Notes under the pieces: generated by a model
What the model was told of the DNA's origin: nothing
The model's database searches: none
The model's input: only the letters and a program-made list of their open reading frames with translations
Source of the DNA: Bilabrum cf. latius
Lineage: Eukaryota
Length of the DNA stretch: 64,000 bases
Direction: 5' to 3'
Assembly (NCBI GenBank): GCA_965178125.1
Contig: OZ237735.1
Span: 2,046,001 to 2,110,000, forward strand
Program-made: the position numbers and the translations under genes
Shown: piece after piece, positions 1 to 58,732 of the stretch
Layout: every line of letters starts with the position of its first letter
Position numbering within the stretch: the first letter of the stretch is position 1

Positions 1-1
1 T

Positions 2-3000
2 GAGCGTGGTGACCTGGCCCTGTGTAGAGCCAGTCAGCAGCGCTTCATCGATCAGAAGCTCCGGCTGGTTGCCCGGAGTCACGGTCTGATCGGCGAAAGT
101 GATCTGCCACCTGTACCCGCGCACCGGGCCGGACGCTGGCACGGGCTAGCGAGCGACCTCGACGTGGCCGACGACCGCGTCCGCGTTACCGGTGCCGTTG
201 CCCATGCTCATGAGGGCAAAGCGCAGTTGCTCCGGGGACACATCGAACGGCAAGAGCTGCGTGCGCTCGCCCTTGAACTCCAGGGCGAACGAGCCGGCGG
301 CGCTGCCAGCGGTTGCGTGCTCGACCTGCACCTGCTGCACCTCCACGACGTGTTCATTCGACTCGAACCACTCCACCCTGTATTTCTAGATGGAATCGCC
401 CGAGGTGGCTGCTGGCTGCCTCCACGCCACATCGATGTGTGTCAACGGTGCATGCTCGGCCTCCTCGGCTGTCATGGTGTCCGTAGGGCACCCGAGCAGC
501 TCAGTCGCGTCGGTTTCCACCACCACAGCGGTCACCTGGGTTGGCGATTCAGGGGCGTTCGAAGGGATGGTCGGCGCTGGCTGGGCCACGGCGCTGAAAT
601 TGCCCTGCCCGACGCCCTCACCAGCCACAGCTGCGATGCGGAAGTAGATCGGGCGGCCGGGCTCCAGACCGGATACGTCGTGGTAGAAGGTACGGTCCTC
701 ATCCAGATCGCCATCGGGTGCCTCAGGGTCACCAATGAAGGGGATGGGAGTCAACGTGGCGTTGTTGGCACCCGAACCGGCCTGCGTCACCAGCGTGATC
801 GTGTCTGTCGGCTCGCCATCCGCACCCGAAGCGAACGTAGTCGACAGGTCGTACTCAATCACGTAGGCGATGATGTCCCTGCCACCAGACCTCCTAGGTG
901 CCCTCCACGTGACACGCACTTCGTCGCCGTACAGCACCTGCGCGGCCGGGTCCTAGGGAGTGGTCGGCTTGATGAAAGCAGGTGCCAGGCTGGAGGGCAT
1001 GCTGTACTCGTACTGCCTGTTCGACGTGGGCATGCCAGTGTGGGACACCATCTGGAACGGAACGGAGTTGCGGGCAAATACGCGAGCGAAGTAGCGAGTA
1101 CCGGTCGTCAGACCATCGATTACGAACGTGTACGGCGCCGCTCCGGCGAGGGCAGCCCCAGTCACAACCGCGGAACCAAGTGGCGTTCCGTCACCGCATG
1201 TGACCGCAGTCGTATTGGAACCGCTCGCAAACGTAGAAGCGGTGTCCCACTGCACGCAATACGATGTGATCGGGTCGCCACCGTCGCTGATAGGAGGCGA
1301 GAAGAACAGTTCTAGCTCCGTTCCAGAGAATATCTCGAGACGCACGTCTGTCGGCTTACCAGGAACTGATCGAGGCGTGGCTGGGAACACCACCGGCACA
1401 TCCGCCGACGGGGTCGTACCAATGGCATTCCTTGCCGACACGCGCACGTAGTACGCCTGGCCAGCGGTGAGGCCAGGGATGATCACGCACCTGTCGCACG
1501 AACGTTGCTGCACAGTGATCCGCGCGGTGCTGGCAGGGGTCAGCTAGTGCGAGTGGATGCGGATCGGCCGCGGCGGCCCGGACTTTCCGATGATGTCCAC
1601 GACGAACACGCGGCGTCGGTCCTGTGGGTCGGAAGCGCCAGTGTCAACAGTCACGGTTGCGGCCGAGACAGATGGCAGCGCCTCCAGAGCATCGCGAACC
1701 TCCTCAGCAGTCGCGTTCCAGGCGAGCGGCCTAGATACCGTGGCATCCGCTACTGCCTGCAGGCTCGCGGGCAAGTTGTCCAGAGACTCAGCCGGCACGT
1801 CGTCGATTGCGCCGGTGCCGCCAGTGCCACCGTATGCCAGCTCGAAGCCACCGCCCAGCGATGCGTTCACGTCCACGCCCTCAGGCACCTCAACCGTGAC
1901 GATCTGCCTGCCCAGCAGATAGTCGGCGTTGCTGTAGACAAGGGAGCCGTACGAAGACGTGCTGAAGCTCGAGGCAGTGTCCCACTCGACCAGGTACGAA
2001 GACGGCAAGTCACCGCCAGTGCTGGCCGGCGGGTCGAACGAAACGCGCAGGCCATTCGCAGAGGCCTCCGATCCCTTCAGCAGCTCCATGGCATGGGCCA
2101 CGGCGCCATCACCGGAAAGGCCGTGGCCATCCGTGCCCAGGAGGTCGACATCCCCGCTGTAACGCACGGCATCCACGAAAGTCACGCGCCACTCAAAGCC
2201 GTTCTGGAAGTCTCCGGGGTCCTGGCTGTCTGGCACGACGCCAGAATCAGGGGCCGCGGCAGAGGCTCGGCTCACCTCGACGGCTCCGCCGCCGCTTAGC
2301 TGCTGCAGGGCGGTCTGGACCGCACTGGCCGAAGCATCGAACGGCAGCTCAGCAGTCTGGTGCCCGCCACGCAGCAGGCGGAACGTGCCGCCGAGCTCGT
2401 TGCCCATCACTACCTGAGCCACAGTAACCTTGGCTCCCTTGCCGCGGAGTGCGTCCACAGTCTCCAGCATTGGCACATCTCCGCGGTCTTCCTCGCGCAG
2501 AGGCCCGTAGCGAGAGCCGAAGCCAAGGAATGTCACGGTCCAGTCGAAGCCGCCCACGCCATCAATCTCCCCGGGCTCGGACCGCCTGACAGTCACGTTG
2601 CCGATGCCAACGAGGTCCTCAAGGGCAGTCTCAACGTCGGCAGCACTGGCACTGTGCTGCAGCGAGCCGGTGAGCTCGGAAGCTGCGGAATGCGCTGTCT
2701 CGCGGAAGCGCAGGCGGAACGATCCGCTGATGGCGTTGCCGGCGGTGCGAGTCTCCACATTGCAGAAAGGAGTACCGGTTGCAGCAGTCAGGTTCTCGGA
2801 TCTGCACACGAACTCATTGGCGTCCCCATCGATGCCGTTCAGCGACAGAGTGAAGGTCACGGCACCCTCTGCGTCGGCGAGCGTCTTCTGCACTCCGACG
2901 ATGGGCCTACCACCCACAGCCTGGACCACCAGAGCCAGCTCAGCCTCCAGCTCAGCCACGGTCGTGTCAGCAGACAAGTCGGAGCCAGCCTCGTCCAGGG

Positions 3001-6000
3001 TGGTCACCGACACTGCGTGCCCGGTGCCGCCAGACCAAGAGCCGTCCATAGGATTGTCGTTGGCGCATTCGGACAAGCCAGCGGCCGCCTGGTCAGGGCC
3101 GTCAGTCACATTCAGCACGATGGAGTCGCCCGGGTCCGGACCAGCGGTCAGGAATACCACCATCCACGAGTACCCATAGTTGCTCGTAGCCGTGCCGTCA
3201 CCCTGACGGGCCACAACAACGTCACTCCAAGGATACGCACCCTCAATCGCCGCCTCGACCTCAGCTGCCGTGGCGTCAAAGTCGATGCAGTTAGTCACGG
3301 CCGTGACGTTGCCGCCCAGGTTCAGGCGGAACTGCCCACGAGTGATGCCCGGCCCAGTCGTGGCAGACACCGTCACAAGCTGCTTCTCGTGCTGGGTTCC
3401 CACCCCGTTCAGCTCCAGAGCAAAAGTGCCATTGAGGATGGCACCAGGCGAGTTGCGCACGCCGAGGGTGATCGTCTGCTGCTCAGGCACCACATCAGCA
3501 GTGCTGGTGATCCGCTGGATCTCATCGCGATGGGTCGCAGCAGTCGTGATGACCTGCACCTCGTCGACATGCAGGAGAGCATCAGCTTGAACATTCTAGG
3601 GGGCACCTGGCCTGCCACGAGGCCGATCCGAGGCCGGAGTGCCATCATCGCTAGGACTGGCCGCAGAGAGTCCGATAGCGTTGCCAGCCGACACTCTTGC
3701 AAAGTACGGTACGCCCTCTTGCAGACCAGAGATCGTGGTCGACAGGGGCAGGTAGGCCGGGGCGAAGTTATCGGCCGTGATCAGCTGAGCAGGCGCGGAC
3801 AGCAGCTGCACAAAGTCGCTGGAGCCGTCGTCGTTGTTGGATGCCCCCGTCACCATGATTGGGCTGACATCGCCGAGGTGCGAGTCAAAGGACACGAACC
3901 ACGTGAAACCGCTCGTGCGGTACAGCGCAACGTTGGTAAGCTGCAGAGCGCGGATGCTCGTCGCGTTCGACATGGGGTCCTCGACAGGGCTCAGCGGCAA
4001 GCTGGTAGCCGTGAATGGCCTGGTCACGTTGGTGCTAACCCTGAAGATCTCAGCCTTCAGGTACACCTGAAGCGCCCTGCTAGGAGCGCCAACGTACGGC
4101 GTCGACTCGTCGAGGGTCAGCGTGAGAGGATCGCCCACTGCGCTCGTCTCCGCGACGGAGATGGACAGGTCACTCGGGGCCGTGCTGCTGCTTCCGTTCA
4201 GGCAACCAGTCATCGGCTCTGTGGGATGGACTTCGATCGGCGCGTAGGTCATGCTAGTCGGGCTGAAACCACCACCCACAAAATACACCTCGTAGGTGTA
4301 ACCCTCGATGTGGTTCGACTCGTTTCGGAAGAAGGAGCGGATGACTTGAACACCGCCGCTGCTACTGATCAGTGCGATGGCATTGAGAGCGTCCTGTACT
4401 TCAGTGGCCTCGGCATCCAGCGGAATGCACGTCGTGTTGGTTCCGTTGTACGTCAGCAGGAACGCCATACTGTCACCCGCGGCATCTGCGAGGCCGTTGA
4501 CGCCGTTGGTTGCCGACGAGACCGAGATCTCCTGCACGGCTGTGCCAGTCTCCGCCACAGTGTGGTTGGTTCCGCGGATACGGATCACCGCACCGGGCTG
4601 CACGTACCGCTGCACAGAAGCAGACATGGTCAGGGTTGTGGTCGGCAGTGCCGACGTGTTGAAGGTCGTTGCCGCGGTAGCGGGCAGCAGCTCATCACCG
4701 GAGGACCCGATGGTAGTCGGCAACGGCATGGAAGAACCAGAGTAGGCCTGAAGCACGGTGCCGTTTGTGGGCAGAGGAACCGGTCGGGCGCCCGAGATGC
4801 GCACGAGATCTCCGCGGGCGAGCCAGCCACGCAGGTCCTGGGTGGTTGCGAGGTCGGTGTCGCCGCGTTGCGCGCTTGCCGACACAACGATCACGTGATG
4901 GCCACTGGTCGCATTGGACAGATCACTTCCCGACCGTGGCACGGAGCTTGCAATCCTGAACTCGCGGTGCACGGACACGGTGCCCACAGTAGAAAGCTCT
5001 TCCAGAGCGGCCTCTACCTCGTTGGCGCTAGCATCGTACCGAATACCAGGCAAGCTTGCCTGCGCCCCGTCCACGGAGAAGTTGAAGCGCCCTGCCAGGG
5101 CCTCGCTGCCGCGCACGGTCTCCACGATACCCACGAAGGCACCAGTACCGGTAAGGCTGGTGAAGTCTGCCACCAGAGGAGACACGTCGCCGGAGCCCGG
5201 CGGGAACGAGCGCCCGTTGCTGCTGCCGAAGTTCTCAACGAATCGCACAGTCCAGGCGTACCCACCCCGAGTTCCATCGACAGCGACAGCCGCGCCGTCC
5301 CAGCCGGCGCCCACCTCAGCACGAGTCACGAAGACATCACCGATGGTGTTCAGCCCGTCGAGGGCGGCCTCCACTTCAGCATCGGTCTCGTTGAAGTCTA
5401 CGGTGATGGGGCCGTTTGCCGCGGCCCCCAGGTTGAGATCGAAGGTCCCTTCCAAGCCATCAGACCCAGCCTGTGACTCCTCCACACGGGCGTTGGCCGT
5501 GGCCAGCTCGCACGCTGTGCACCCACTAGTGCTGGTGTTAGCCCCCGTCTCGTCTACCGTATTGTTCGTGATGGCCAGCAGAGGCAGGTCACCGGCTCCA
5601 AGCGGGAAGTTGTGCGGGTTGCTAGTGAACGTGATCACAAAGTTTCTAGAGCCGTACCGGTCGGTGATCTCCCTGCTAACCTCAACCAAGCCGGTCACTC
5701 CGCTCACACCCAAGCCAGGAGATCCATCAACATTGGAATCGGCGCTCTCAATCGCCGCGTCCAAGTCGTCGGCGGTGGCACGGACCGATACATTCGCGCT
5801 CGAGTGCACCTCTCCCGTGTAAGGGCTTGGTACCGACAAGCTGAAGTTCCCGATCAGCACGTTACCGCGCACCTGCTCCTGGATGTCGGTGTCTAGCAGA
5901 GTACCAGTCAGAGGCTCGGCACCGCCGCTGCCAGCAGTGTCAATAGTGATACCAACAATGTCGCCCGCGGCAGGGCAACCCATCAAGATAGGATCCGCTG

Positions 6001-9000
6001 CGTCGCACTCGGGGTTGGGCTCGCCACCTGCCAGATTCTCGGGCTGACTCAGGAATCGCACAGTCCACGTGTAGCCGCCAGTGGTTGTATTCACTGCAGA
6101 CCTAGTCACCTGCACCTCACCCACGTTCACGAGGTCCTCCAGGATGTCCTCAACAGACAGCCCGCTCTGACCAGGCACTGCGTTGGCGTCCGCAGTGCTG
6201 GGGAGGGCATTGTGGGCGATGGGAGACGTCTGCGCCACGGCATCTACGGCGCACGACAGGCACCCGGTGGTGTCGACAGTCAGGCGGAACTCGCCATCGA
6301 TGGGCTCCGTGCCGTCAACGCAGTCGGTGCCACCGTTCAAAGAGCCCGTACCACCCTCGCACACGCTGCACGCTGGGCTGCCTCCGTCCGATGGAGAGGT
6401 GGCTGTAAGGCTAGACGTGTCGCACCCCAGGCTGGCAAGGTCTCCCACGTTGCGGCCCCAAGATCGCGAGAAGCGGCGCCCGTTGGAGACTCCGACACCG
6501 TCCCATTCCTCGAACGTCGTTGTGCCGTCGTGCTAGTTGGAAAGGAAGGTGATGGACCACAGGTAACCACGTACCTGGCCGTGATCGACGCCGAAGGCCT
6601 CATCCGCAGCCGACTGGTTCAACGTAGTGCGGCTGACCTCAACGTACCCGGTGCGGTCGTCCACTACGCGGTTGGGAGTCATTGCTTGAAGGGCGGCGCG
6701 GACCTCGTCTGGGCCGGCGTTGTGGTTAATCGGAGGAGTGATGGACCCACCAAGGGACAGGCGGAACGTGCCTCCGAGCTCATTGCCCTGCTCCAGCGTA
6801 GACACAATAACATCAACACCGTCACCAGTCAGGTTGGTTCCCAGCTCCATTGGCGATGTGAGAGGAAGCACGTCACCGCCGACCAGACTGCCGACGAACG
6901 TTACGTCCCACTGCCAGCTGTGAGCATCAAGCGGACGGGCATTCGAGTCGAATCCGCCGCCGCCCTCCCTCGTGACAACAATTTCCTCCATGGCCTCAGC
7001 ATGCGTCACGTTGAACAGGTCAGCGATGGCACCGGCAAGAGCGCTGTGAACATCGGATGCGTTTGCGTACGCATGGATAGGCCAGGTGTCCGCGCAATCG
7101 TTCAAGTTCGGCACGTAGAAGTCGTTGCTGTCAGTGCTATGACAATACCTCAGAGCGAAGTTGCCCCGGATTTCGTTACCGCGCACCTCGTCGCCGGTCA
7201 GGTGCTGGCTGTCCTGCGTAGTCTCAACGAGCAGGTTCGGCGTACCAGGTCCAGTCAACGCGCTGTCATCGAAGCCCATCGTAGGGATGTTACCAAGGAT
7301 GTCGTCACCAACGAACGTGATCGAGTACTCCACGAAGCCGACCCCGCCGTTGGTACGGGTCACCTGGATGCTTGAGCTGCCAGCAACGTTTGCAAGTTCA
7401 GCGAGCCTAGTCTCGATGCTGTCGCTGTCGGAAGCATCGGAAGAAGCAGGGTTGATTCCAGCGGTAGTGGCGCTGATCTGCACGTCGCAGATGCTGCAGT
7501 TGGAGGTATCCAGGGTCAGGGTGAACGTACCGCCGGTGGCACTCACAACAGAAACGTTCTGCACCTCGTACACTCCGACACCGATGTCAATGCCAGCAAG
7601 AGGCGGGCTCTCGCTGCCGCTTTGTTCGTAGTACGGTAGACCAGAGGTTCCATTCGGCTCAAGCACGGCGTTAATCACCGAGAAATTAGACACGACCCCA
7701 GGTAGGTCCGTGAAAGTCACTGCCCATTCGTACCCACCAGTGGTGGACACGGCGGACCTAGACACTGTGACGTCCCCGATGAACGGGTCCATGTCCTCGA
7801 TGGCGGTCTCCACCTCATCATCCGTGGCACCGGTGCTCAGAACAGAAGACAGGAACACGTCGGGCTCATCACCGTCCACGTAGTTGATCCTGAGCTCTGG
7901 GTGGATGTCCTCGATCAGCAGCTAGAACGTGCCGTTGATCCAGATGCCATTGCGGATCGTCTCAACTTCACAAGTATACCCGTCAGCTAGTGCCGAGTCA
8001 TTGCACTACAGCTGTGCAAGGTTACCCACGGTCAGCGCGTTAGAAGCATCGAAGGTCACGAACCACTCAAAGGCACCCGTAGATCTGGGAGGACCGCGCG
8101 ACACCTGCACGTCACCAGCCACATTGCTCATCGCCAGCAGAGTGCCGATCATGCCAGATACCGCGTTGCCTTCAGATACATCCCACTCCATACCAGCCGA
8201 AACGTCAGATTCTGATGGCCTGGATGGGAAGTGGTCGGAGCCGTTGAGGGTCAGTGTGAAGGTGCCGCTCGCCTCCGATCCGTTCACGGTCGTCTCGAAG
8301 GTGACGGTAGGGGCGTCGCCAGTCATCGCGTTGGCAAGCAGAGTGATCTCTGGGTGGTTGCCGAACACCTTGTCGAAGCTGATGTCAAAGATGATGTTCT
8401 CCGTCGTGTTATCCGACGGCAGATCCGTCACGTTTACAGACACGCAAGGAGGCTCGTTGCACGCACCGTCGAAGGTGTCACGAAGGTGGATGGCAGCCTG
8501 CGTGATGTTGCTCACGTCAAGATGCGTCGTCTCGTAGACCGCGCCCGGGCGCTCACACAGCTCACAGCTCTCCGAACTCGTGAGGTCGAGCCGCAGACGG
8601 AACGTTCCCGCCAGATTGGTCGCGGTCGTGTTGACGACAGGCTCATCGCAAGCCTGGCCAGTCTCATTCTTGCACACCAGGAACGGCAACGGGCACATGC
8701 TGCAATCCGACGAGTCACACCGATCCTCGCTCCAGCCCAATGGGAACAAGCTGTCGGCAACGCTGGTGTCGAATACAATGTTGTACGAGTACCCACCCTG
8801 TACGGCATAGTCTCCGTCGTCTCGCGTTAACGACGCCACGTTGCCAGTCCCGACAAAGTTCTCAAGGATCGCTTCGAGCTCGCCCGAAGTGGCATTCCAA
8901 GGCACACACTCGAATTGGTTGCCGAAACTGAGCACGTAGTTGCCACCATCTACGCCGTAGTCGCCACCAGAGCCGTACGAGATGGTCTGCCTGAGGATGG

Positions 9001-12000
9001 GCTCCCTCACGACGATCTGCTGGTGCTGTACGCTGTCAGGCCCGGCGATGCTGATCCGCTGGATCTCGTTCACTTCCTGCGCTGAAGTGACGATCGTCTG
9101 CACCTCAGGACGATCCGTAGCCGTTGTTGCAACGCGCTGCACTTCGTTGATGTCATCGGCCCATGTCGCCACGGTCTGAACCTCCGCAACGACCGGCGCG
9201 CCCAGCATGGTTGAGATGGTCTGCTCTTCATCGCGGCCATCGACAGTCAGGACGACCGTCTGCCTCTCGTTGGTGACCTCCACGTCGGCAGTCACGGTCT
9301 GCACCTCGCCGATGGGGTTGCCCTCAAGCACGATTGCCTGAGTCTCGTGGAAGATGTACTCTTCTGTCATGGCGTAGCCGCCGTCATCGCTGGAGATTGG
9401 CGTCTCGGTGCTCGTCTCGACCACGAAGCGATCCAATGTGAGGCCGCCATCGAACTCAGGCAGAGACCAAGACACGTCCAGAGAGGTGGCGGAACCGGGA
9501 GTAGGGTCTACCTGCACGTTCTGCGGAGACGAAGGCACAGCCGACTGCGCTGTCACGTTCTCAGGAGTCGACATAGCCGGTGCGCCTGCACCCATGGCGT
9601 TGTATGCAATGACCCGAACCTGGTAGCTGTCGCCCTCGACAACGGTGGAGTTGTGCGTGCCACGCGTGATGTCTCGGACGCCAATCACGTAGCGCGTTGT
9701 ACTGGCAGACACAATCACCGAGTTGGCAGCGACAGCGTTCGGGTCGTTGTCGAATGCCGGCGTCTCCCACTCTACGTAGTAGCGCTGCAGAGGCAGACCG
9801 CCATCGCCGCCCTGCTCCGGAAGGTTGGGGTTGGGAGCCGACCACGTCACCAACAGCTGCTGGGACCCGACCGATGAAGCGGTCACATCCTGCGCCTTAC
9901 CTGGGACCGTGTTGGTGGGCGTCAAGCCGGCGGGCGACGTGTTGGCGAACGCACCGGTGCCTTGATCGTTGACTGCTGCCACACGCACGTACCAGGCCTG
10001 GCTGCTGGCTCCCACATTCACGTTGTGGAAGAACGGTCCGTTGGATGACGTCGCAAGCCCGCTCGCGATTAGGCCAGCCACCGACAGGATGATCTCATTG
10101 CCAGTCGTAGGAACATCCGAGAATGACGCATCGCGCGACCACTGCACCACATAAGCAGAGATGGCAGCCCCGCCGTTGTCGCTCGGAGGATCCCAGATCG
10201 CCTTAATGGCACTTGACGTGTGCGGCACCAACATGGCGTTGGCTGGCTCGTCGGACTGCCTGCGCGGAGTCTCGGACAGGATTGCAGAGGCATCCCCGGC
10301 TCCCTCACCGCTGATCGCGATGATCCTGATGCCGTACTCCACGCCGCGGGACAAGCCTGTCAGCATCGTAGCAAACTCGCTGCCGCCGGCGCTGTTCATG
10401 CTGTCGGCGTTGGCACGCAGTGCACCTATATCCGTCAACGTAGTGTAGTTGAACGAAACCGGCACCGAGCCTTGCACACGCTCGAAGGCGAAGGCACTGG
10501 CGGCGGTGCCAGTCAGGGAGGCACCGTGAGTGGTCATATCAGCGAGATCGCCGGACTGCGACAGGAAGGTAACCTGCCAATCGTATCCGTACGAGTTCAC
10601 CATACGCTCGACATCCACGTCTCCCACGGTAGGCAGAGCCTCGAGCTTGGACTCCATCTCCTCAGCGCTCACATCGAAGCGAAGAGGGGGCGTGCTGTAG
10701 CCCATGAAGCCGACCCGGAACTCGCCGCCCAGCGACTCCCTGGCCGTACGAAGAGTGAACGTATCCAAGATGTAGTCCTCACCAGACGCGGGCACTCCGC
10801 CATCAAACGATGTTGCGGGCTCCGCACGCAGCTGCGGCTGATCCTCGAACTGCTACGTGAATGTCACCTCCCACTCGTATCCGAAGGCCGACCTCTCAAG
10901 AGTTGCTCCAGCGAGGGCAACTCCAGTGAAGGTAGTGGTCGTCGCGGAGTTTGAAGGCTCTGCGAGGTCGATCTGAGTGCTGGTCACTGCATTCACACTG
11001 AACCTGATGCCGCCCAAACGGATAGGCTGACCGACCTGGATGCCACCTGCAACGAAGTCGCAGCCGGTACCAGCGTCGCAAGTCACGATGCCTGCTCCCT
11101 GTGCCACAGAGACAGTACCGGAAGCTGCCTGGAAGGACGGCTCTCGGGAAACAGTGACCGCTGAGATCGAAGGAAGAGCGTTAAGCTCATCCTCCACAGC
11201 AGAGTCTGTCGCATCGTGGTCAATTGTGAACGTCCGCTCGTCCTCACCAGTCGTGGGGTTGCGAGCAATCACCACGAAAGAGCCAGTCACGCTGTCAGAA
11301 GAAGCAACGCTGCGGATAACCTGCACCTCAGAGGCGCCGTCGCCAGCTGAGACGGTGATCCTCTACACCTCAGGCACGGGATCCATGGCTGCTGCTGAAG
11401 GCGAAGTACGCCTGGGCCACTGCTCGACGCGGTAGGAGGTAGGCTCGAGACCGCCGTTGTCTGCGGGCGGCGACCAGTGCACCTGCAGCGTGGACTCGCG
11501 CACAGATGGCAAGCTGCTATCCGAGAGAGACACGCCGGGAGAGCTGACAGCTCCTGGATGAGCCAGCGGCACCACAATTGAAGCGTCGCTGAAGGAACCG
11601 TATCCGTTCCTGTTGTACGCAGCCACGCGCACGTACACGTCAGTGCCCACGGGGAGGTTCTCGAGGTCCACACGAAGGGCATCGGTGCCTGCGACCACCT
11701 CGCGCACCTCCATTCGCGCGTTGGTACCCACAAGAAGGGTGTCGTTGGGGATCACCAGCGGCATGTTGCCAGCCCCTTGCAGAGTCTCATGCTCGCCATG
11801 AGTGTACGTGATCCGCCAGATGCGCCCGCCGGTCGTGTCATTGCCGGGAAGGCGGTTCTCAACCGACACAGCCGCCGTGTGGATGGTGCTCAGACCCTCC
11901 AGCACGTTCCTGACGTGGGCTGCAGGGGACCAGATGGAGATTGCCTCAGTCTCGACACCCTCGAACTCAAGAGCGAATCTGGAAGCGCTTCCAAGCTCAG

Positions 12001-15000
12001 AGTCAGCAACTGCGACCGCAGACTGCACCTCGAATGTGAAATCTCCAGGTACGATGTCACCGACACCGCCCTGCCTCTCCTCGACATACATGCGCGGACC
12101 GAAGCCGCCGACACGAGTCTGATCCACCTCAAGAAGGCCCAGATCACCGCGAGGAGCGCCCGTGAACGTGACAGACCACCGGAAGCCGTTGCCGAACTCG
12201 GTGCGCGACACCTGGATTGGCGGGCGGTCTTCCTCGTAGGCGCCTGGCACCAGCATGGCGACCTGCATGCGCATCTGCTCGGCGGTGACGTCCCAGGGCA
12301 GGGGCGCTGACACGCGGCCAGCCCAGTGCAGAAGGAACGAGCCACTTCTGTCGTTGTCGCTCTGGAAGATAAGCGTGATTCGCTGCACCTCATTCACGAG
12401 CTCCAGTGACTTCTCTCCCATCGGGCTGCTGAAGCCCGGGTCGGTGTCCCACTGGACAACGTACCGGGTGATGGCGTTGCCACCCGAGATCAGGGGTGGC
12501 GAGAAGTCCAGCGAGGCGCTCGACCTCGTTGACGATACGCCAGCAACGACCGAAGTTGGCTTGGACGGGCGCACACCAACAGAAGGTACGGTGATCGTCT
12601 TGACGGTGGAAGAAACTCCAGTCCCAGTCTGCTTGCCTGTGGCAGACACCCGCACGGCGTACTTGGTACCAGGTCGCAGAGCGTAGTACACAGGGTCGTA
12701 TCGAGTGAGAGCAACTCCCTCCCTGGCGGTGTCAAGGCGCACCTCGATGCTGCCACCAGCGGCAGAGCCACCTCCAACCAGGTCAGTGCAGCCCACATCG
12801 CTGCCCATGCCATCCAGCTCGATGGGTAGAGGGCTAGACGAGCCAGCTTCCACGTTGCTGATGTTGCCAGCTGCAGACACCTCGTGCCGCCCGACGAACG
12901 TGATCTCGTACCTCCAAGCGTATCCAGATCCGGCGCTGCCATCGCCATCGCGGTTAACGATGACCTCAGAGTCGGTGAGATTCCGAAGCACTTCGCGCAC
13001 GTCATCAGCAGAAGCACCATAGTCGATGCAGCTCGAGAACCGATCGCCCTGCCGCAGCTTGTACTGGCCGGTGACAGGCGCAAAGTTGTCGGCGTCTTCG
13101 AACAAGAGAGAGCCGTTGGCTGCGACGCCGGCACGGAGGCCGATCGTCTGCACCTCAGGCGCAGCACCGATCACAAAGTGCCTTGCCTTCGCGGCGCGAG
13201 GCAGGATGGTGTGCAATGACGCGCCGATGCCGCGGAAGTCGCGGGTGTGCGCAGGCTGTGCTCGCACAGTCTCCACGTCCGCTCGAAGCACAAGGAACAG
13301 GAGGTCCCAAGCGTAACCGAACTTGGGCGAGGAATCAATGCTGGAGAAATCGGATCGTGGATCGAATTCTGAGCCCTCGCCCGTCCTGCGCACGAGCACC
13401 TCGCCGACAGACTCCAGGTCGAGAAGAGCTTCCCGCACGGTATCAGCACTTGCATTGAACTGCAGCGTTCGGGTTACCTCTGAGCCCACACGGATAGACC
13501 ATGAGCCGTTGATTGAGCCGCCGTCCATGGCGTCGATCGACACCACAACCTTGTCGTAGACATCAGCCCAAGCGCTAGCCCCGCCCAGGCCGGTTGAATC
13601 AGCGTACATGCGATCAACACCCTCGGGACCAGACTCGGATGCCTGCACGAATGTCACGTGCCATTCAGATCCGTACTGTGTTCCGGTTCCGTCGCCACCA
13701 ATGCGCCCGCTGTACTTGCGCACCTCGACGTCGCCGGTGTTGAGGTTCTGCTCGAGGGCAGTCTCCACCTCGCGAGCAGTCGCCTGTGCTGATACGCTGG
13801 TGGACCGCCCTCTGTAGTGCAGTCCGATTGTTCCGGTGAGAGCTGCAGAGCCCCTCGAATCGGTGGCGATCACCTGCACCTCAGGTCTTGAGTACGATGC
13901 GCAGGCACCAGCGAATTGGTCTTCTGCCACACCGGTGAACGGAAGTGGCAAGGCCGGTGCTGAGCCGCATGCCTGGGAATCCGCAATCAGGGTAGCAGAC
14001 TAGTACTCCTCCGGCAGGACGCCAAACTTCACGCGAGTGTCAGAGCTGACAGAATCCGCATCGGAGGCCAGAACCTCCACAGAAGGCACAGCCAGCGGGT
14101 CGCTGGCCACGAGGCTGCTGTCGCTCACGGTCAGCGCAGCAACATCGCCGAGCTCATCTGTGAACGTCACGATCCAAGCGCAGCACGACTGGTTGCCGGT
14201 GGCGTTGTAGCTAGCACTGGTCACACCGATGGCACCGCTAGTCGTGGGCAGCGCCTCCAGAATGGAGGCAAACTCCTCTGCGCTGGCGTCCACCTCAATC
14301 GGTGCGGTCTCTGCGCCGTCAAACGACAGCCTGAACGTGCCGCGAAGGGTTGACGCACCGTCGGCCGCGCTGGCCTGGGCAGCCAGCACACCCTCTACCC
14401 GATCAAAAGCAGAAGCATCGAAACGCACAACCTGCACCTCGGAACGCATGTTGACGTCGCTGGCAAGCCACCACTCGATCTCCACACTCTCAACTTCGTC
14501 GCCATTCGTCATAGGCTCCGAGAAATCCACGGCCACCTGCGTGCGGCTGATGGGAGTAAGGGTAACGTCAGCAGGGCCGCTAGGGGCGCGACCCGCCAGA
14601 ACCGAGACAGGCTCCACGCCGTAATCCCTCCCCGTATTCTGCTCCTCGTGGGTCCACGGCGAAGTGGCACCGAGGGCATTGCGCGCGCGGACGGTTGCGT
14701 AGTAGGTCTAGCCCTGCTCCAGCAGCGCGCTGGAACCACTGAAGCCGCCCACCATTGCGAATGTAGGCACATCAGCACCCTTCGTGGCCTCCGCGGCATC
14801 GATAGACACGGCAGGCACAGAGTCTTGCGCGACAAAGCTGGCGTTGTCGGCCATGGCAAGGGCGTAGCCGCCGCCGAGTGCCAGCCGCTCGCTCGAGTCC
14901 TACTCGCTACCAGCCACGGCAGAAATCTCCGGCACGTCACCGCGGCGGCTGACAAACGTAACGTAGTAAGCGTAACCGAAGCCAGCACCGCCAGGAGAGC

Positions 15001-18000
15001 CGTCAGCGAGGGCTTGCCTTCGAACAGATACGGCACCAGCTCCAGCGACCTCCTCCAAGGCCAGCTCGAGGTCGCGCGCCGAGGTCCTGCCAGCGTACAG
15101 GGTCCTCGTTGCCGCAACCTCACCGGTATTACCGCTCTGCAGGGTCAAGTGGAATCCACCCTGCACGGCTGACGCTGCAAGAGCGCCCTATGTATCGGAC
15201 CCGAATCCGATCGAGGCAGTCACGCCTGCCGCGTTGGCCGACGAGACGTCCGGAGCCGGAGTCCCGTACCCAGCCGAGTCGCTACCAAGCGCACGCACCC
15301 GCACAACTTGCACCTCGTTTACAGGCAAGTTCGAAGAGAAAGCTGGCACGCGTTGGGTCACAATGTTGCTGGAATCAGCGCCGCTGCCAAACACGTCAGT
15401 CGAGAAGTCAGCAGGCGTACCCGGCACAGTAGTGTTGACCAGCACGAACACGTTGGCGACGTTGTCGGCGACAGGCGCGCCAGTATTAACATCAGTAGGC
15501 GACACAATCAGGCATGGGGCAGCCGACACAGGGTCAGAGTTGCATTCCGAGGAGAGCGGACCCACATGAGAAGTGAGGGTGACCACCCAGTCAGAGCCGC
15601 TCTCGCTATCAGGGCCATATCTCGTCACATCCACGGACTTGATGCCGCTGAGCGAGAGCAACGCAGTCTCGATATCCTCCTCAGTAGCTTGGATATCCAC
15701 CGTGACCTGCGCCCTGCGGTACAGCTGCACAACAGCACCAGTGGCCTCATCTGCGGCGAACGGCAGCGAACCGCCGGCATCCACAACAGGAGTGCCATCA
15801 GCGGTAGCAGCAACACGAGGCAGCTGCTCCGCACCTTCCAGCACAAAGCCTTCCACCTCAACAGTCTCAAGCAGTACCGTGGCGACCTTGTACACACCAA
15901 GAGCGCCACTGCCGCTATCGGCACCGACTCGGATCGAAGAACCAGCCGACAGCAGGGGGCGAAGGTCCTGTGCAGGCAAGATGATGGAATCGTTAGTCCG
16001 AACAACGCCTGTTCCGATCAGAGTAGACGAAACCATGATAGGCTCAACTTCACCGGAGGTACCTGTGGCATGCGGAGTCTTGAGTGGCACAGAATCGCAC
16101 GTGAACGCACGGCCGGGGTCATCCGAAACGATATGCGTCTCGCCAGCAACAACAATCTCGGTCCCGCGGGCAAGCCAGGGCCTGAGATCCACAGTGGTGT
16201 TGACAGCGTATGAGCCAGCCTGCACCTGAGCGCAGTTGGAAGTAGGAGCTCCTGCCAGGTCGCACAGGTTCTGGGTCATGTCACCGACGAAGTCAACGGA
16301 CAGCGCGAGCTGCCCGGTCAGATGAGTCTGCCCATCCACGCTGCGGATGCTCACGCGGATCTGCTCGGGGCTGGCACCAGCCTCTCCAGCTGCTACCTGA
16401 GAAACTTGGACCATGCCGGTGGCTGCATTGGATCCAGCTGCAGCGGCCTCGCAAGTACCAGCAAATGCATCCACAGCTGCGAGCATGGGCAAGTCACCAG
16501 ACACCGCGTTACCAACGAAGGTGACCATCCACACAGTCTCGGTCGGCGTGTCAGTGCGCGTGGCATCGAAACCAGAGGCCGGTCCGTTGTACGCACGGCT
16601 AACCGAAACAGCGCCGGAGCCGATGCCCGGTAGGGTCGCCAGCTGCTTCTGCACGAATCGAGCTGGGGAATCGAAGGAGATGCACTACTCAGTGCCAGCA
16701 TCCCTTGCCGCTGCGATCTCAGCCGAAGTCGTCGGGAAGCGACCAGTCGACGGATTCCGAGTCACGAAGCTGAGACGGAACGAGCCCATGGATGCCAAGC
16801 TACTCGAAGAGTTAACCGGAGACACAGTTGCGGTGATTCGCTGCACCTCAGGTTTGCGACCAGTCTTGGCGAGCTTGAAGTCGAAGCTCTCGATCGGAGA
16901 GCCGAAGGGTCCATACGGGCCGCCAAATGGCACGTCGTTCCAGGCCAGGTCGATGTTTGCAGCGACCTCGGTCTCGCCAGAGACTCCGTTCTGCTCGCTG
17001 AAGGCGGCAAGGTGCGACGTGGTACCCCGAGGGGCGACGGGTGCCCCGTACGGCGCAACGGCTGCGGGCGAATCAACCGGCAGGGAAGTGCCGAGGCTGT
17101 TCAGGGCGCGTACCCTCACAAACAGGGGGACACCGGGCTCCAGTCCGGCCAGTTCGAACTCGTAGCTGCCAGAGCTACCGCCCACGGCAGCATCTGCCTC
17201 GGAAACGAACACCGCTTCCACTGCCTCAGGGCGCAGGTTAATCGCCTCGCACGATCCATCGCCACCGCGACCACCGCCACGCACGAGCTCCGATACGGAT
17301 ACGTTGGCGCGCTGGATTCCATCGCACACCTCGGCAACAAGCATGGGCCTGTCAGCGCCACCAACCACCGTCCCGGCAGTGGATGGAGTACCGCCCTGGA
17401 AGGTAATGTCCCACTCGTTGCCGTAGGCCCAAGCAGGGGACGATACATTTCCACAGATGCTTATCTCCGGGTTCCAGCCCTCCGCAACGACGGTGGAAAG
17501 ACCGAGCAGCTCATTGGCCACCGTGACCTCGTCCGCGTCGAAGGCAATGCAGTTGGTCACCTATCCGAGATAGGACAGGGTGAAGCCGCCGGCAGCCGGC
17601 ACGTCCTTGGCTCGCAGCTAGACACGCTGAACCTCGTCGAAGTCACCGCAGGATCCATCAAACGTGGGAGTACGAGAGGCCTCCACCTCGAAGCCGGTAA
17701 TCGCACTGCCACCAGAGCTGGATGGCTCGGACCACTGGACTAGGAGCCTGGTTGGGTCGCTGGGGATGGCTGAAACAGCCACCGGCCCAGTCACTGGCTG
17801 AGGCACGTTGTCAGTAACTACGATGGCGGGAGTTCCAGTCCTGGTCTCGGTGTGCACAGCATACTCAGAGTAGCCCTCAGCGTTGCGCGCCTGCACGCGC
17901 ACGTACACAGAGGCACCAGGAGTGATTCCTGCCTCGTCGAGATCCGACACAACCGCGCGGAACGTGGTCTGAGCGCGCTGGAACGGTCCATCACCCGAGA

Positions 18001-21000
18001 TGATCTCAGTGAACACAACACTGCCAACACCAGCCGTGGATGCGTCAACCTGCACGAGCGGCAAGTCACCCGCACGAGCACCGAAGGTGATCAATACCGG
18101 GGTAGGTGTGGCTGCTGCGCAGATAGTCGTCTGGGTCGAATCGGCATCTGACAGGGTCACCTCAACGCCATCCCCAATTCCAGCAGAGGCTGCCAGGATG
18201 GCCTGGAACTCATCAAGAGTACTGTCTACAGACACACCGGTCACAGTGTATCCCAGTAGAGATAGATCGATCGTGTCTGACGAACCCAGGGTGGAAGTGC
18301 AAGTCATCTGCTGGACCTCTGCACGAGCACCCACAGCCAAGGACGGGCTGTCACCGTACAGGCCCTCATCAGATCCGGCATCCGAGTCGACCGTGAGGTC
18401 GCCTGCGATGGTCCTGCCTGTGCGGCCTGGCAGCACGTTGCCAGTGGCACTGCTCGTGCCGAAACCATCGCTTCGCGGCACATTCTGCGCGTCCACTACG
18501 ATAGTCCAAGTGTATCCGTAGGTGGTTGCATGACGGTCTACGCTCACGATGCTAGCGGCACCGCCCAGAGCAGGCATTTCAGCAAGGGCAGCTTGCATCT
18601 CACGGCGATCCGCATTCCACGGCACGCGCGTCTGCTGGCCGCGGAAGTACACATTGAATGCACCGCTGCGGCCAACGGAAGAGTTGAAGGAAGAGCGGAT
18701 GACCAGGGTCTCCATGCCAGGTGCACCCGATGACGCAGGCACGATGGCCTCGGCAGGAGCTGCTCCACTAAAGTCTGCCTGGCTGCTGACCTGCACCCGA
18801 TAAAGGGTCACCTCGGCTCCTCCATCGCGAGAAGGCGGTTCGAACGAAACACCGATCTCGGTGCTTGACACGAGTTCCGCCTCTACCAGCTCCGGTGTCG
18901 CAGGGACGGTGTACGCCGGCATGCGCGCCACTGGGTTGGAGCTCATGCGGAATGCGCCGAGGCCAAGGCGGTTCGAAGCACCCACCCGTACGCGGAACTC
19001 GCTCGTGGAAGAGAGATCCGACAGCACGACCGACGACCGACCGAACACAGTGGCCAAAAGTGCGGAATTTTGGTTCGAGGTGGACAGGCCGGCACCATTC
19101 ACTCGCAATGGCTAGAGGGCGCCCGGTGCCGAAACAGCAGCCATGGGGGCCACTACGCCGGCAGCCGCGGCAGACGAGGATTCTGCCATGGCGTACGGTG
19201 ATGCATCTTGGGACGACGTGAATGACACGTCCCACTCAAACCCATTGCCAGACGCTGCCCTAGACACGCGCACAGTCGAAACGGTGGAAAGAGACTCAAG
19301 CTCTCGTGCCACAGTGGCTGCGTTCGCATTCCAGTCGATTGCCTCCGTGGTCTGGCGCCTGTAGATGGTAAAGGTGCCGTTTTCAGCGGACACCGGGCCG
19401 CGGAAGGCACGGTCCAGGTGCAAGACACCATCGGTGTTCCTGTCACAGAACTCCTCGGACAAGCGGTAGATGTACAACTCAGGGTCAGACTCGGCATCGG
19501 GGCCGAGAGCAATCTCGTCACCGCACTCGTACGTACCCGTCATATTGACAGTAGCAAGCAAAGTGAAGTTATCAGTCTGCACAACACCCTCACCGATCAG
19601 AGTATCGGCCCTATACACTGGCTGGGACACTATGTCGCCTGGGAGTCCACCGAAGCCGACAGACAGGGTGGCGTCGTGTGCAGCGCACAGCGGCACGGTT
19701 GTGTCCGTGCTGTCGTAGTCCACGATACGGCCAGTCGAAGCAGCACAGACGCGATACACGGTCAACTCCACGGGGTACAGCACCGCCGATGCGCCAGGTG
19801 CGCCGATTCTGATGAACTCACCCGGGAAAAACTCGTCACGAGCATCATCACCAGCGATCACTAGCTGCGCCTCACTGCTGTTACTCAGCGTGGCCTTTAG
19901 AGCATCGTTGCTGCCCAGGCGACCACTGCCTACTCGACTAGTCAGCGAGCCTCGGAAACCACCGGCAGCGATGCTGAAGGTACCCTCCAGAGGCAGCTGC
20001 GTGGCGTCCACCTTGATAACCTGCCGAGCGTGCGTGACAGCCACGTTTACGATGCCCTTCATGGCAGAGTCCGCCGCAGACGGGGCAAACCCAGACGTGA
20101 AGACGGGATGGCTTGTATACTGCACGTCATGCGAGGTGAGAGACAGACCCCCGGCATCAGCAGTCTCGTCGAACTCCACCTCGAGGGCAGTGTTACTGAA
20201 CGGAAGCAGACGCACGGAGCCAGCAGGCGGTGCCGAGGGCTTGCATACGGGCACGATGGTAGCCGAATACTCGCCGTCGGCCGAAGAGGCCGAGGGACCG
20301 AAGGTACCGAGTCCCTGCTCGTTAATGGCACCCACCCGCACTGTGTACTCAGTACCGACATGCAGGCCGACAATTGAGAACGCACCCTGCCCGGCCGATG
20401 GCACGCCACTCGTGGCCTGAGCATCGGCGGCTGCCTGGGCCGCCGACACGACGGCAGACCCGAAAGCCACAGGGGCCACTGCCTCGCGGACCGTGACACC
20501 ACGGGAAACGGCAGCAGCCGTAGCCCCTACGAAGGCCTCGCCGTTAACCACCAAAGCACTCACGTTAGCGACCGTGTTCGAGAAAGTCACGAACCAGTCC
20601 CTCGAAGAAGAAGTGTTGGTCGAGCTCACCTCCACAAGGTCAACGCTGGGCAGCGCCTCCAGCGCGCTCTGTACCATGGCTGCGGTCGAATTCACGGCAA
20701 GCGGGACCGTAGCATACCGCACATATGCACGAAGTCCAGTGCCAACCAGCTCGGTGGCGACCGAGGTGTAGATAGCCTGCAAGGGCAGTGAGCCCGCCGC
20801 AAGAAGACCGTCCGTCTCGTCCCCAATGGTCAGGATGGCGTACCGCGCAGCACCAGTTCCTACCACGGAGGCGCTAGGTCGGATCAAGACTTCGTCGCCG
20901 CGACGCAGGAAGTGAGTCAGGTCAGTTGACGTGGTCATGGTTCCGGACCCGTCCTGAAGCGCGACGGTTCCGGGCAGCTCAAGGTCGAAGCCAGCAGTCG

Positions 21001-24000
21001 CGATGGTAAATGAACCACCAGCGACCAAATCATCGGGGTCGCTGGCAGAGACGGAAACGCGCTGCACTTCGGCCACCTCGTAGAACGGCGCCACCGGAGC
21101 CTCACGGAACCATTCGATGCGGTATTGGGAGACAGGTGCACCGCCGTTGTCAAGCGGTGCGGTCCAGTCAACGCGAGCGCTGTTGCATCCAGTGGCAGAC
21201 ACGCCTTGTACCAGCGGCTCCGACGCCGCAGTTGACACAGTAACGGGGTTCTGCTTGATCAAGGCCCACTAGCCCTGACCACGCTCCGCATTGGCTGCCG
21301 CGATCCTAAAGAACATGGGCACGCCACGGTGCAGGCCATCCACAGTTCGTCGGAAGGCCCGCAAAGAGGTGCTAGCATCCGCACGGAAGTCACCAGGAGT
21401 TGAGCTCGAGACTGGCACTTGCATGCGCCCGCTCACCTGAGCCGACGCATCGAAAGAGCTTGAAGAGCTCCACTCGATAATGAACTCGGACAGGTCATCA
21501 CCTCCATTGTCTGCAGGTTCGGCCCATTCAACCACGACAGCATCGTCAGCGGACTGCACCGCGTTTGGTGCTGCAGCAGAGTGGAACGCGCTTGTGGGCT
21601 GTTTGGGCGGCTGCACAGGGGTAGTTACACTCACTGGAGAGGTAGCGTTGGGAGACGAGTAGCCTCGGTCGTTGGCAGCCGCGACGCGCACGAAGAACTC
21701 AGTGCCGGGGTTTAGACCGGAGAGCTTCTTGTGGAAGTCAGCGTCGCTAGACACGAGCTGGCTGCCACCCGCAACCTCATCGCTGTCTGCGACCCAGGAA
21801 TACCCGGCTGGGGCCACTCCCATCCGCGAATCGGTGTGAGTGCAATCCACGGCATCGACACTTAGAGTGCGGTTGGCATACGTGGGGGTATCGGCTGCGT
21901 CGTACCGGAGCGCCTTACCAGTGTGGTTGTTCCAGCAGACGCCGATGCCAGCGCCCGAAACAAACTGGCGGAAAGCGCTTTCATCAGAGGAAGCCGGGGC
22001 AAGCCCATTGGCGTACAGCCCGCTGTCGGAATCACCGAAGCTCCCGGTATCCAAAAGCGGCAGCACTGCGGGTACTTCGTGAGGCATGTCCGCGAAAGTG
22101 ATGGACCACTCAAAGTTGCCCATGAAGGCATCGTGGTTCTGCTCAACGTCCACAGTACCCACAACGTTTTCCAGACCTTGCAGAGCGGTACGCACCTGCC
22201 ATGCGGAAGCGTTGACAGCAAGCAGGCCCGTTGTGGCCTTCTTGAGAACCGGACAAGGCGAGCTGGAGGTGCCCGCGGTCACATGAGCATCCGAGGACGT
22301 ACCTGCAGCAAAAGCAGCATCGATTTCGGCCTATGCACACCCGCGAGACGTGTCGAAGACCAGACGGAACGAGCCCATCGTCTTCTCGCCGTTCCCGAAG
22401 ATGCGTACGGTTTGCATGGGTGCTACTCCGGAGGAGAAGGCTGCCGTGGCTGACTCAATCCGGTACCTGTTAACAGCGTCGCCGTTTACTTGCCTAGGAG
22501 CATCCCAGGCCACGTCAATGGCACGACCCGCATCTTCGCCGGTGGATGCCGACAGGGTCACGCCCTCGGGTCCTGTTGGCGGTGCCATCGGCCGCACCGC
22601 CACCGGGGCACCGGCAGGACCGTACCCTGCCGCAGACCTGGCAGTGGCACGCACGTACACTGCAACACCAGCGGTGAGGCCCGAGATGTTGAACCTGGGA
22701 GCCTCAGCCCACTGCTCTGCCTCCACGCAAGCATCAGACCCGCCGCATTCCGGCTTGTCAGCAGCGGCGCAGGTGGACACATCGACAGATAGGATTCCGC
22801 GCGGAGTCGCAGGGGCAGAGAACTCCACCCTCCAGTCAAAGCCATCCCCTCCAGACGCAGCTCTAGACCGCGTGGCGCGTACACTTGCGCCGGAATCGTC
22901 CTCGCCTGCCTCGGCGATGAGCGCCTCGATCGCAGTCTCCACATCAACCTCGGTGGCTGCCTGATCAATGTTGCAGTCGGAGATCACGGACATATTTGAG
23001 TCCGCGTGCCTGTATCGGATCGCAAAGAGGGAACCAGCATCCAGGGCAAGCCCAGAGGCGGCCGACGCTGCCAGACGGATCGTCTGGACGGCCAGTGCGG
23101 AAACCTCAGGGCTCGTGCCGGTCGTAGCAGCAACACTTGGGCCAAACTCACCGATGTCAGCCTCTTGCAGTCTGGCTGCCGATGCACTGTACGACATTGG
23201 CCTTCCATCGCTACCGCTGTTGAAATCCACCGAAGTGTCCCACTCGACCAGGAAACGAGTCACAGGCGAACCACCAGTGCTGTCATCGCTGAATTGGTCG
23301 ATGCCGAAAGCAACCTCAGCGCTGGTGTCAGTCACAGCAAGGTTGCCGCGGCCTGCAATAATGCTCGGCGCAGCGGGTAGTGCCCTAGGCACAACAGCGG
23401 GCTCGCAGAATGTTAGAGACTTGGAGCAAGCCGCGGTCGCGTTCGTCGGCTCGCTCTCCCCGATCGAGTTCACCGCGGTCACACGAGCGTAATACCGGCG
23501 ACCAGGCACCAGAGCAAGGCTTGGGTCTGCCCGCAGGTCAGACTCAGTGGGCACCAGCACAGACCAAACTCGGTCAGGAGCGCCGGACACCAGAGAGCTC
23601 TGGGACATGGGCACGTCCTGCGGCGTGCTCGTAATGTCCTCTCCAACGACCAAACGAGCAGAGTACAGAGGCTCTCCAAGAGTGGCCGAGTCAAACGCAG
23701 GATCGCGACCGATCTCCACGATATACTCGGTGATGTCTGCGCCGTTGCTGTCAGATGCAGCAACGAACTCCACGCGCAGCCTGTCGTTCTTGTCTGGCTC
23801 TGCCATTGCCTCCACATTCTGAGGAGAAGCAGGCTCAGCGCGTGGCACCACGGCGCGGAGAGAACGGGCCAGGGTGGCCGAGTCGTCGCCAAAGTTGAAC
23901 AAATCCAGGCTGGCTGCCTGCGTAGCAGGACCAGATCCGACTGCATTGATGGCATTGACCCGCACAATGTAGGGCATGCCTGCCTTCAAGACACCGCCAT

Positions 24001-51668: not shown

Positions 51669-51712
<44 letters not shown>

Positions 51713-52954: not shown

Positions 52955-53086
52955 CGCCTAGCAATGGATTCTTGTTCGTTTCCCGACTTTTCAGCCGGCC
53001 GATAGTATGCTGGCAGTGCTTCGCTCTCGTCTTATGTTGCTAGCAAACTCGGTGCGATCGAAAGGCAGCGCTAGCAGCTAGACGGC

Positions 53087-55765: not shown

Positions 55766-55845
55766 AAGCGCGAGGCGGATGTGGCCCGTTGGAGCCTCGG
55801 CGGTTCACTGGGGCTCCGCCTTGCAACATGAACGCACGTATCGTT

Positions 55846-58688: not shown

Positions 58689-58732
58689 CACGCGCGCGCT
58701 GTACACGTTTGCATAGAACAATATTCGGGTTG

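Follow-up and report, generated by a model that had tools for sequence, protein, structure and literature searches.

Stacked EVQ strands in a giant protein of Bilabrum cf. latius may complete distant domains nested within one split fn3

The minus strand of a 64,000-nucleotide stretch of the genome of the eukaryote Bilabrum cf. latius (GenBank assembly GCA_965178125.1, contig OZ237735.1, positions 2,046,001 to 2,110,000 of the forward strand; the whole stretch is called the window here) encodes a giant protein in which ten short strands of the type E-x-Q-x-[IV] (EVQ strands) follow one another in tandem, ahead of a long array of repeat domains (bodies) that mostly lack such a strand. The best explanation of this run, to which we assign a probability of roughly 60% on the basis of sequence comparisons and of a model of a smaller sister module, is a nested, out-and-back course of the chain in which one stacked strand would complete each distant body.

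The run would then be a stack of the detached first beta-strands of the bodies that follow it, with about ten domains inserted one inside another, each right after its first strand, within one split fn3 domain. The polypeptide would exit the fn3 after its C strand and lay down ten first strands, each extended 13-residue unit covering about the length of one body; thirteen extended residues measure ∼40 Å, about the size of one small domain. The chain would then turn and come back through the bodies, the last strand pairing with the first body, the preceding strand with the second body, and so on, until its end lay beside the starting point and the fn3 was completed at 3638-3748. Such a course would give a two-way branch of about ten bodies, projecting sideways from the axis of a giant extracellular eukaryotic protein. 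The nested order is suggested by the tight turn that joins the last run strand to the first body, by the short linkers (successive strands are 6 residues apart), and by closure of the fn3, which would bring the last body alongside the first strand. We infer that each stacked strand fills the slot of the first strand in the body with which it is paired in bracket fashion; that the resulting stalk is "mechanically clamped," as was also proposed from the DNA sequence alone (the original prediction), is speculation.

The minus-strand translation of 8975-9349 contains exactly the ten motifs listed in the original prediction (HETQAIV, GEVQTVT, NERQTVV, DEEQTIS, AEVQTVA, NEVQRVA, PEVQTIV, NEIQRIS, QHQQIVV, and, as the last, LRQTISY), which was also right that elsewhere in the protein one EVQ strand opens each repeat. 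The first nine strands are spaced by 13, 13, 13, 15, 13, 13, 13, and 13 residues. The run is far beyond chance: the 16,587-amino-acid (aa) protein contains 47 matches of a strict motif, E[VIERTQ]Q.[IVL], compared to a mean of 2.1 in 300 shuffles, and their longest run at a spacing of 11 to 16 aa comprises 8 copies, compared to a shuffle maximum of 2. Tandem Repeats Finder detected no DNA-level tandem repeat in the run (0 rows), which argues that the EVQ copies are old and diverged. The 271 stacked units found in 153 proteins have the 13-mer consensus N-E-V-Q-T-I/V-T-T-S-A-T-D-V, with E in 94% and Q in 99%, and within runs of at least three strands the spacing is 13 residues in 296 cases and 14 residues in 71. 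The run and its spacing pattern are kept, with almost no indels, in orthologues at 25 to 45% identity. With the motif itself excluded, identity is 43% between strands of the same index (n=288) and 17% between strands of different index (n=2016). Such conservation of spacing and of per-index identity fits poorly with a generic spacer.

The giant protein exists as one chain only if TAG is read as a sense codon. With the bacterial code, the minus strand around the run appears as a chain of long open reading frames (ORFs) split by single stops, each of which is an in-frame TAG within a conserved motif, e.g., NGTF-TAG-LLIED (GxFxL strand), PGAP-TAG-NVQA (fn3 start), and GDVqVTR. The same regularity rules out introns or frameshifts as the cause of the breaks. 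Among its 16,587 codons, the giant ORF has 41 in-frame TAG but no TAA or TGA, alongside 451 CAG and 53 CAA; four of the TAG codons lie between 9350 and 3700. Two TAG codons (giant aa 12800 and aa 1678) fall where the EVQ motif has its invariant Q, and the relative P0100 (69% identical) has Q at the position matching giant aa 12800. All six neighbouring ORFs (49970-63938) terminate in TGA and carry 1 to 6 in-frame TAG each. No tRNA gene was found within the 64-kb window. From these sequence contexts, TAG almost certainly encodes Gln, and the run-bearing protein is real, given an organism that reads TAG as Gln. The G+C content of the window is ∼62%, which to our knowledge is unusual among known lineages with TAG as Gln. 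In such a genome, standard gene callers would fragment the giant protein and probably most of the proteome.

The EVQ/GxFxL/WxVTF domain that forms the bodies is present in about 70 copies in the giant ORF, as counted with a profile built from the window. It is an alpha/beta domain of ∼100 aa, which in its full form starts with an EVQ strand, a GxFxL strand, a T..i strand, and a helix (dAtaaeve.aLe.l), continues through a V.V.R strand, a W.VTF strand, and gd.P.l, and is closed by an x-V-x-V-x-T..G strand. No Pfam family matched the body; weak partial matches of HMA and POTRA_1 over the helix region were dropped as a common beta-alpha-beta motif. Relatives came from a comparison of a profile of 30 window bodies with the sequences of solved structures. 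Three proteins of mycobacteriophage Bxb1 (PDB 9d9w, 9d93, and 9d94) were matched: the tail tip cage protein gp23 (9d93), with an E value of 3.5e-35 and three strong stretches; the major capsid protein gp14 (residues 315-366, E 1.2e-6); and the tail tube protein gp19 (residues 202-241, E 1.5e-4). The best non-fn3 structural match of an AlphaFold model of a smaller sister module of the giant protein (the 2+2 module, see below) was also gp23: VIA-align superposed the model on 9d93_Md with Z 14.6, a root mean square deviation (rmsd) of 1.9 Å, 107 aligned residues, and 20% identity over model range 46..367, and the Foldseek E value for the shared fold was 2.4e-8. Profile and model comparisons thus both place the repeat body as homologous to the C-terminal extension (CTE) domains of Bxb1, with the same fold.

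This relationship bears directly on the role of the EVQ strand. By sequence alignment, the solved phage relative has the strand as an integral part of its domain, in first position, where it reads VEEVQQIYI..GGTFKIGY, NEVQTVRL..GGTFTLSL, and NEVQVVEL..GSFTLTL in gp23. The gp23 copies also seem to be nested, each next copy being inserted after the V.V strand, as the N-parts of three copies (268-326, 328-387, and 386-463) are aligned ahead of the C-parts (514-560 and 563-594). A tblastn search of phages returned 15 records of Mycobacterium, Gordonia, and Microbacterium phages at 34 to 45% identity; phage carriers of the domain are minor tail, tail sheath, and hypothetical proteins and PHROGs 10909 and 2839. 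A description of gp23 refers to "three additional CTE-like domains" (PMC13252515), and the matched capsid and tail tube regions are C-terminal extensions that, in a 2021 account, are external, non-essential, and immunodominant and had no known function at that date (PMC8704799). Eukaryotic relatives number 1,214 cluster representatives at a threshold of E <= 0.001, of which 94 reach E <= 1e-30; lengths of 2,000 to 7,600 aa are frequent among them, and the nearest ESM Atlas clusters are annotated as "hypothetical protein" of Eukaryota, most often of Bacillariophyta (diatoms).

The fn3 halves that flank the run and its bodies (Table 1) were assigned by sequence profile and are ∼1,900 aa apart, with solely the run and bodies between them. 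Twelve of these bodies were detected by profile and one, which is Cys rich, by eye. A direct EVQ strand precedes just two; among the nine bodies of 4961..8293, all but 7277-7555 are preceded just by an x-V-x-V-x-T..G strand. The same fn3N..fn3C build recurs throughout the giant protein, which has 10 complete modules, and in its relatives. A Pfam scan of the whole giant ORF returned fn3, Filamin, and PA14 together with weak partial matches, PF00041 (fn3) being matched at E 2.3e-17 in the run-bearing ORF piece and at up to E 1.1e-50 per 4,500-aa chunk.

Closure of a split fn3 is predicted for the 2+2 module, which was modelled by AlphaFold from a 23-sequence alignment (22 orthologous rows) with a mean predicted local distance difference test score (pLDDT) of 88.7. 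In this model the two halves form one complete fn3 around an insertion of ∼320 aa; the best match of the domain is 6x39_A (Z 14.0, rmsd 1.6 Å, 99 residues aligned of a 100-residue chain, model range 1..434). Since the fn3 closes around the insertion, the chain must leave and return in this sister model. The outer strand S1 (model residues 65-71) is a 7-residue DSSP strand with a block pLDDT of 93, following a linker of pLDDT 60, and lies 7 residues from S2. Body 1 has S2 and a closing strand at 264-271, and body 2 has a closing strand at 355-362 and is without a first strand of its own in the sequence. S1 is therefore the sole strand unassigned, and body 2 the sole body without a first strand. 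The range of the gp23 match, which begins before S1 and extends through body 2, is compatible with S1 in the first-strand slot of body 2 but is not decisive. The original prediction made no mention of in-frame TAG, of the enclosing split fn3, or of a phage virion domain family with solved structures.

Strand and body numbers were compared in 199 fn3N..fn3C modules from 153 proteins, with each module written as a word of EVQ strands (s) and bodies (B) after merging of insertion-split bodies. The two numbers were equal in 120 of the 199 modules, the commonest words being sBsB (50), sB (40), ssBB (14), and ssssBBBB (4), and differed by at most one in 64 of the 69 modules with stacked strands. The running sum of strands minus bodies never became negative in 43 of these 69, compared to a mean of 17.8 and a maximum of 29 in 1000 shuffles. 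Leading strands and the uninterrupted bodies after them paired as (2,2) in 14 cases, (3,3) in three, (4,4) in five, (7,7) in one, and (9,9) in three. For runs of >=2 stacked strands (n=54), strand number and the number of bodies without an EVQ strand correlate with r=0.97, and the two agree to within 1 in 96%. Three of the proteins with an orthologue of the run's module have nine strands, then nine uninterrupted bodies, then ordinary sB units. For the run's module itself, 10 strands and 13 bodies, two with their own strand and the last a weak match, leave 10 to 11 EVQ-less bodies. Several points of the original prediction hold for this module: most downstream bodies do lack their own EVQ strand (2 of 13 have one), the tally it called for gives 10 stacked strands against 10 to 11 EVQ-less bodies, and the out-and-back chain agrees with the wide separation of the fn3 halves here and with the reassembled fn3 of the sister model.

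The junctions between bodies provide a further line of evidence. Their median length is 30 aa without an EVQ strand (n=480) and 48 aa with one (n=226), and the EVQ junctions visibly contain both a closing x-V-x-V-x-T..G strand and an EVQ strand. The difference of ∼18 aa suggests that the closing and EVQ strands are separate elements and that EVQ-less bodies are short of one.

Several observations weigh against nested completion. Many of the 199 modules are mutually orthologous and may represent perhaps five or six distinct module types, and the balance is exact in just 26 of the 69 stacked modules. Unequal cases include 10 ssBBB words, many of which arise because the body profile matches insertion-bearing bodies twice, and leading counts of (2,3) in 10 cases, (4,3) in three, and (4,2) in two. 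In P0099, 7 strands precede 8 bodies, and in P0005 a 13-strand run leads to just 7 bodies ahead of a further run; neither strands nor bodies are detected perfectly. Forty-five of the 226 EVQ junctions are as short as EVQ-less ones, as if the EVQ strand replaced the closing strand, and the x-V-x-V-x-T..G strand before EVQ-less bodies lies at the same distance from GxFxL as does an EVQ strand, so that it could open the next body and leave the stacked strands as extras. Mutual information between EVQ-strand and body positions in 686 ordinary strand-plus-body units gave no usable covariation; the strongest signals (flanking positions -1 and 0; E1 with body position 74) look like subfamily effects. 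The sheet that S1 joins in the 2+2 model is likewise a deduction, with no strand-to-body contact seen, and the gp23 topology derives from an alignment rather than from the three-dimensional structure, its C-part matches being weak (5.2 bits each). AlphaFold applied to the run and four bodies (giant aa 13455-14045, 12-row alignment) reached a mean pLDDT of just 39.0 and a predicted template modelling score (pTM) of 0.24. A complex prediction of one body (aa 258-375) with strands S1-S3 of the first module (aa 125-166) scored 0.01 and 0.00 against a mark of 0.34 and, with the alignment unused, the partner fold uncertain, and no controls, speaks neither for nor against binding.

The junction data lead to an alternative that we consider unlikely, namely, that each body is completed by the preceding x-V-x-V-x-T..G strand and that the stacked EVQ units serve as the outward path, one 13-aa unit per body, edge docked or loose, with the same nested order and no fold completed. 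Besides the short EVQ junctions, the equal distance of both strands from GxFxL, and their alignment in the same columns of our first profile, this alternative can appeal to the closure of the fn3, as a linear array then needs some length-matched return path. Most EVQ junctions are nevertheless ∼18 aa longer and visibly hold both strands, and a closing strand is also present behind a module's final body, with no body to follow. The EVQ strand moreover belongs to the domain in the phage relatives, and the near invariance of E and Q in the stacked units goes beyond the needs of a spacer.

It is less probable still that the ten strands pair with one another in a beta-meander or narrow solenoid beside the first body and that the body array loops back to the fn3 alone. 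The linkers of 6 to 7 residues are long enough for hairpins, and an S1-S2 hairpin is conceivable in the 2+2 model with its 7-residue spacing. A local sheet would leave the close tracking of EVQ-less bodies by strand number unexplained, however, and the consensus has no Gly/Pro-rich turns; an identical motif in every strand also fits a meander poorly, because neighbours in a meander alternate in direction. Very improbable, finally, is an unstructured, Thr/Ser-rich, flexible or glycosylated spacer whose periodicity is a relic of duplication. The pLDDT of 28 to 46 along the run could be cited for it but carries no weight in a model that is poor throughout. The period, the motif, and the identity of individual strands are kept in orthologues, the DNA holds no repeat, and the equivalent S1 of the sister module is a confidently predicted strand.

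Table 1. Features of the giant ORF and of its modules (positions in the window)
Feature	Position	Strand	Remarks
Giant ORF	2..49762	-	>=16,587 aa; runs off window start; open solely with TAG as residue
fn3 N-half (strands A-B-C, ...SLDVSWSLPEFDGGLTLDRFVVET)	9383..9538	-	own fn3 profile positions 2-51 of 105; giant aa 13409-13460; directly upstream of run
Stacked EVQ-type strands S1-S10	8975..9349	-	translation; 13-aa period
S1-S5	9329-9349, 9290-9310, 9251-9271, 9212-9232, 9167-9187	-	
S6-S10	9128-9148, 9089-9109, 9050-9070, 9008-9028, 8975-8995	-	
Body B1 (GNYVLSF...)	8753..8950	-	body profile, 31 bits; directly after last run strand
Divergent Cys-rich body Bx (GTFRLRLDL...NIIFDISF...HPEITL)	8297..8692	-	by eye; missed by body profile; weak match 13707-13731 in another profile search; without own EVQ strand
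Bodies	8009-8293, 7685-7939, 7277-7555, 6869-7186, 6527-6802	-	body profile; 7277-7555 with own strand EVQNVSV
Bodies	6032-6313, 5582-5878, 5222-5476, 4961-5119	-	body profile; without EVQ strand
Body with own strand AVQEISV	4274-4489	-	body profile
Last body	3854-4018	-	weak match, 13 bits; without EVQ strand
fn3 C-half (...TISGLQEGVPYFARVSAGNAIGLSAAS)	3638..3748	-	fn3 profile positions 66-102; giant aa 15339-15375; closes module
2+2 module	10253..11560	-	fn3 N-half, S1, S2, two bodies (first with 75-aa insertion), fn3 C-half; giant aa 12735-13170
4+4 module	45263..47320	-	strands EVQEIEV, RQQVITS, ERQIVLI, EEQEVRC; four bodies; no TAG inside

Some variation in the bodies and stacks was evident beyond these modules. 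Cys-rich bodies of the run's module (8297-8692, 6032-6313, and neighbours, minus strand) contain, e.g., CDSSDCSMCPLPFLVCKNETGQAC and CSVCEGG...DCVDG and many N-x-S/T sites, and in orthologues the first body retains a C..C pair immediately following GxFxL; these bodies are possibly disulfide-stapled variants. Body 1 of the 2+2 module has a beta-rich insertion of ∼75 aa between the V.V.R and W.VTF strands (model residues 146-220), which, by alignment, is the site of next-copy insertion in gp23. A further stack follows the fn3 C-half that closes the run's module (3523-3562, minus strand; giant aa 15389-15470), with the strands EVQVITT, EIQRITS, EQQTITL, and EKQLVTV; it is preceded just by an fn3 A-strand-like PGAPqNVQA and followed by three to four bodies. 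Stacked strands without recognisable split fn3 frames are found in P0005 (aa 247-2600 and 5358-6600) and P0099 (aa 800-1600). The 13-strand run and 7 bodies of P0005 are followed by runs of 4 and 2 with more bodies, so that this stretch is locally unbalanced and roughly balanced as a whole, as if a stack were filled and emptied in turns; the 8 bodies of P0099 are evenly spaced.

Between its repeat blocks, at about 38000-40400 and 30000-36000 on the minus strand, the giant protein carries PA14 domains (E 1.9e-26) as well as Filamin repeats (E 1.5e-30), a predicted content in keeping with an extracellular role in adhesion or carbohydrate binding. The first ∼110 codons of the giant ORF (49660-49800, minus strand) include no ATG, an in-frame TGA lies at 49798, and the true start, with any signal peptide, is probably in an upstream exon or missing. 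By eye, the full-length relatives P0010 and P0016 open with hydrophobic, signal-like N termini. The neighbourhood at 50732-63661 also looks eukaryotic by eye. It comprises a low-complexity Ser/Ala/Arg-rich protein (50732-52954, minus strand), together with ORFs that we take, by eye, to encode a leucine-rich-repeat protein (52823-55765, plus strand), a dynamin/EHD-like P-loop GTPase (56784-58688, plus strand), an AMMECR1-like protein (58733-59443, minus strand), and a TALE-type homeobox protein with WFRNERKR (60167-63661, plus strand).

Domain insertion is common and usually involves one level; a ten-level recursion with bare strands in front would, if true, be a topological extreme. If the domains are nested, the outermost one could not close until ∼1,900 residues had been made, and the inner domains would have to fold before the outer ones. 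Under load, the hairpin branch would give way by shearing of one strand after another rather than by unfolding of successive domains. The proposal also supplies a rule that can be read from sequence, a tally of strands and bodies between two fn3 halves, which is applicable to hundreds of unannotated proteins without a Pfam family. The homology with the phage domains is notable on its own: a domain known only as an enigmatic, immunodominant capsid and tail extension of mycobacteriophages proves to be the unit from which giant eukaryotic surface proteins are mainly built. The broader proposal is that a ten-deep Russian-doll fold (s^n B^n in a split fn3) exemplifies a general rule of the giant extracellular proteins of marine protists, with branch length set by strand number and a building block shared with actinophage decoration domains; we give this proposal an even chance. 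A thin full-text literature search found no description of the stacked strands or of the eukaryotic family, and by that search the depth, the bracket-like grammar, and the link between phage and eukaryotic domains are new, while nested insertion and split domains were already known.

Among known split-domain systems, the bacterial RTX adhesins come close: split Ig-like domains project single ligand-binding domains, with the N and C ends of the insert side by side (PMC12077191). As in the modules described here, an axial beta-sandwich is interrupted by a folded domain that branches off, after which the chain comes back and completes it. The adhesins project one domain, whereas the modules described here would carry arrays of 1 to ∼13, with a strand stack as the outward path. 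A Pfam scan of the whole giant ORF detected neither RTX repeats nor a type I secretion signal; with its eukaryotic-looking neighbours and sense TAG, the giant protein works like a split-domain adhesin but is not an RTX member. Other fn3 domains with long inserts also superpose on the fn3 of the 2+2 model, namely, 5u8q_A (94 residues aligned, chain range 580..797) and, likewise, 6ceb_A and 7v3p_A. FnIII-2 of the insulin and IGF1 receptors is a solved fn3 with a large insert, which is located in the C-C' loop and is largely unstructured, in contrast to the array of folded domains predicted in the window. In chaperone-usher pili, donor-strand complementation completes an incomplete beta fold with an outside strand. 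The donor there is the next subunit, whereas in the giant protein the strand would be supplied by its own chain, in nested order; no homology is implied. The CTE domains of Bxb1 share the EVQ strand and the GxFxL, A.a..v..aL, and V.V motifs with the bodies of the giant protein. They occur as one to three copies decorating phage virion proteins, in contrast to about 70 copies in one giant eukaryotic protein, and while gp23 apparently inserts its next copy after the V.V strand, the protein of Bilabrum cf. latius would do so after the first strand, to a depth of about ten.

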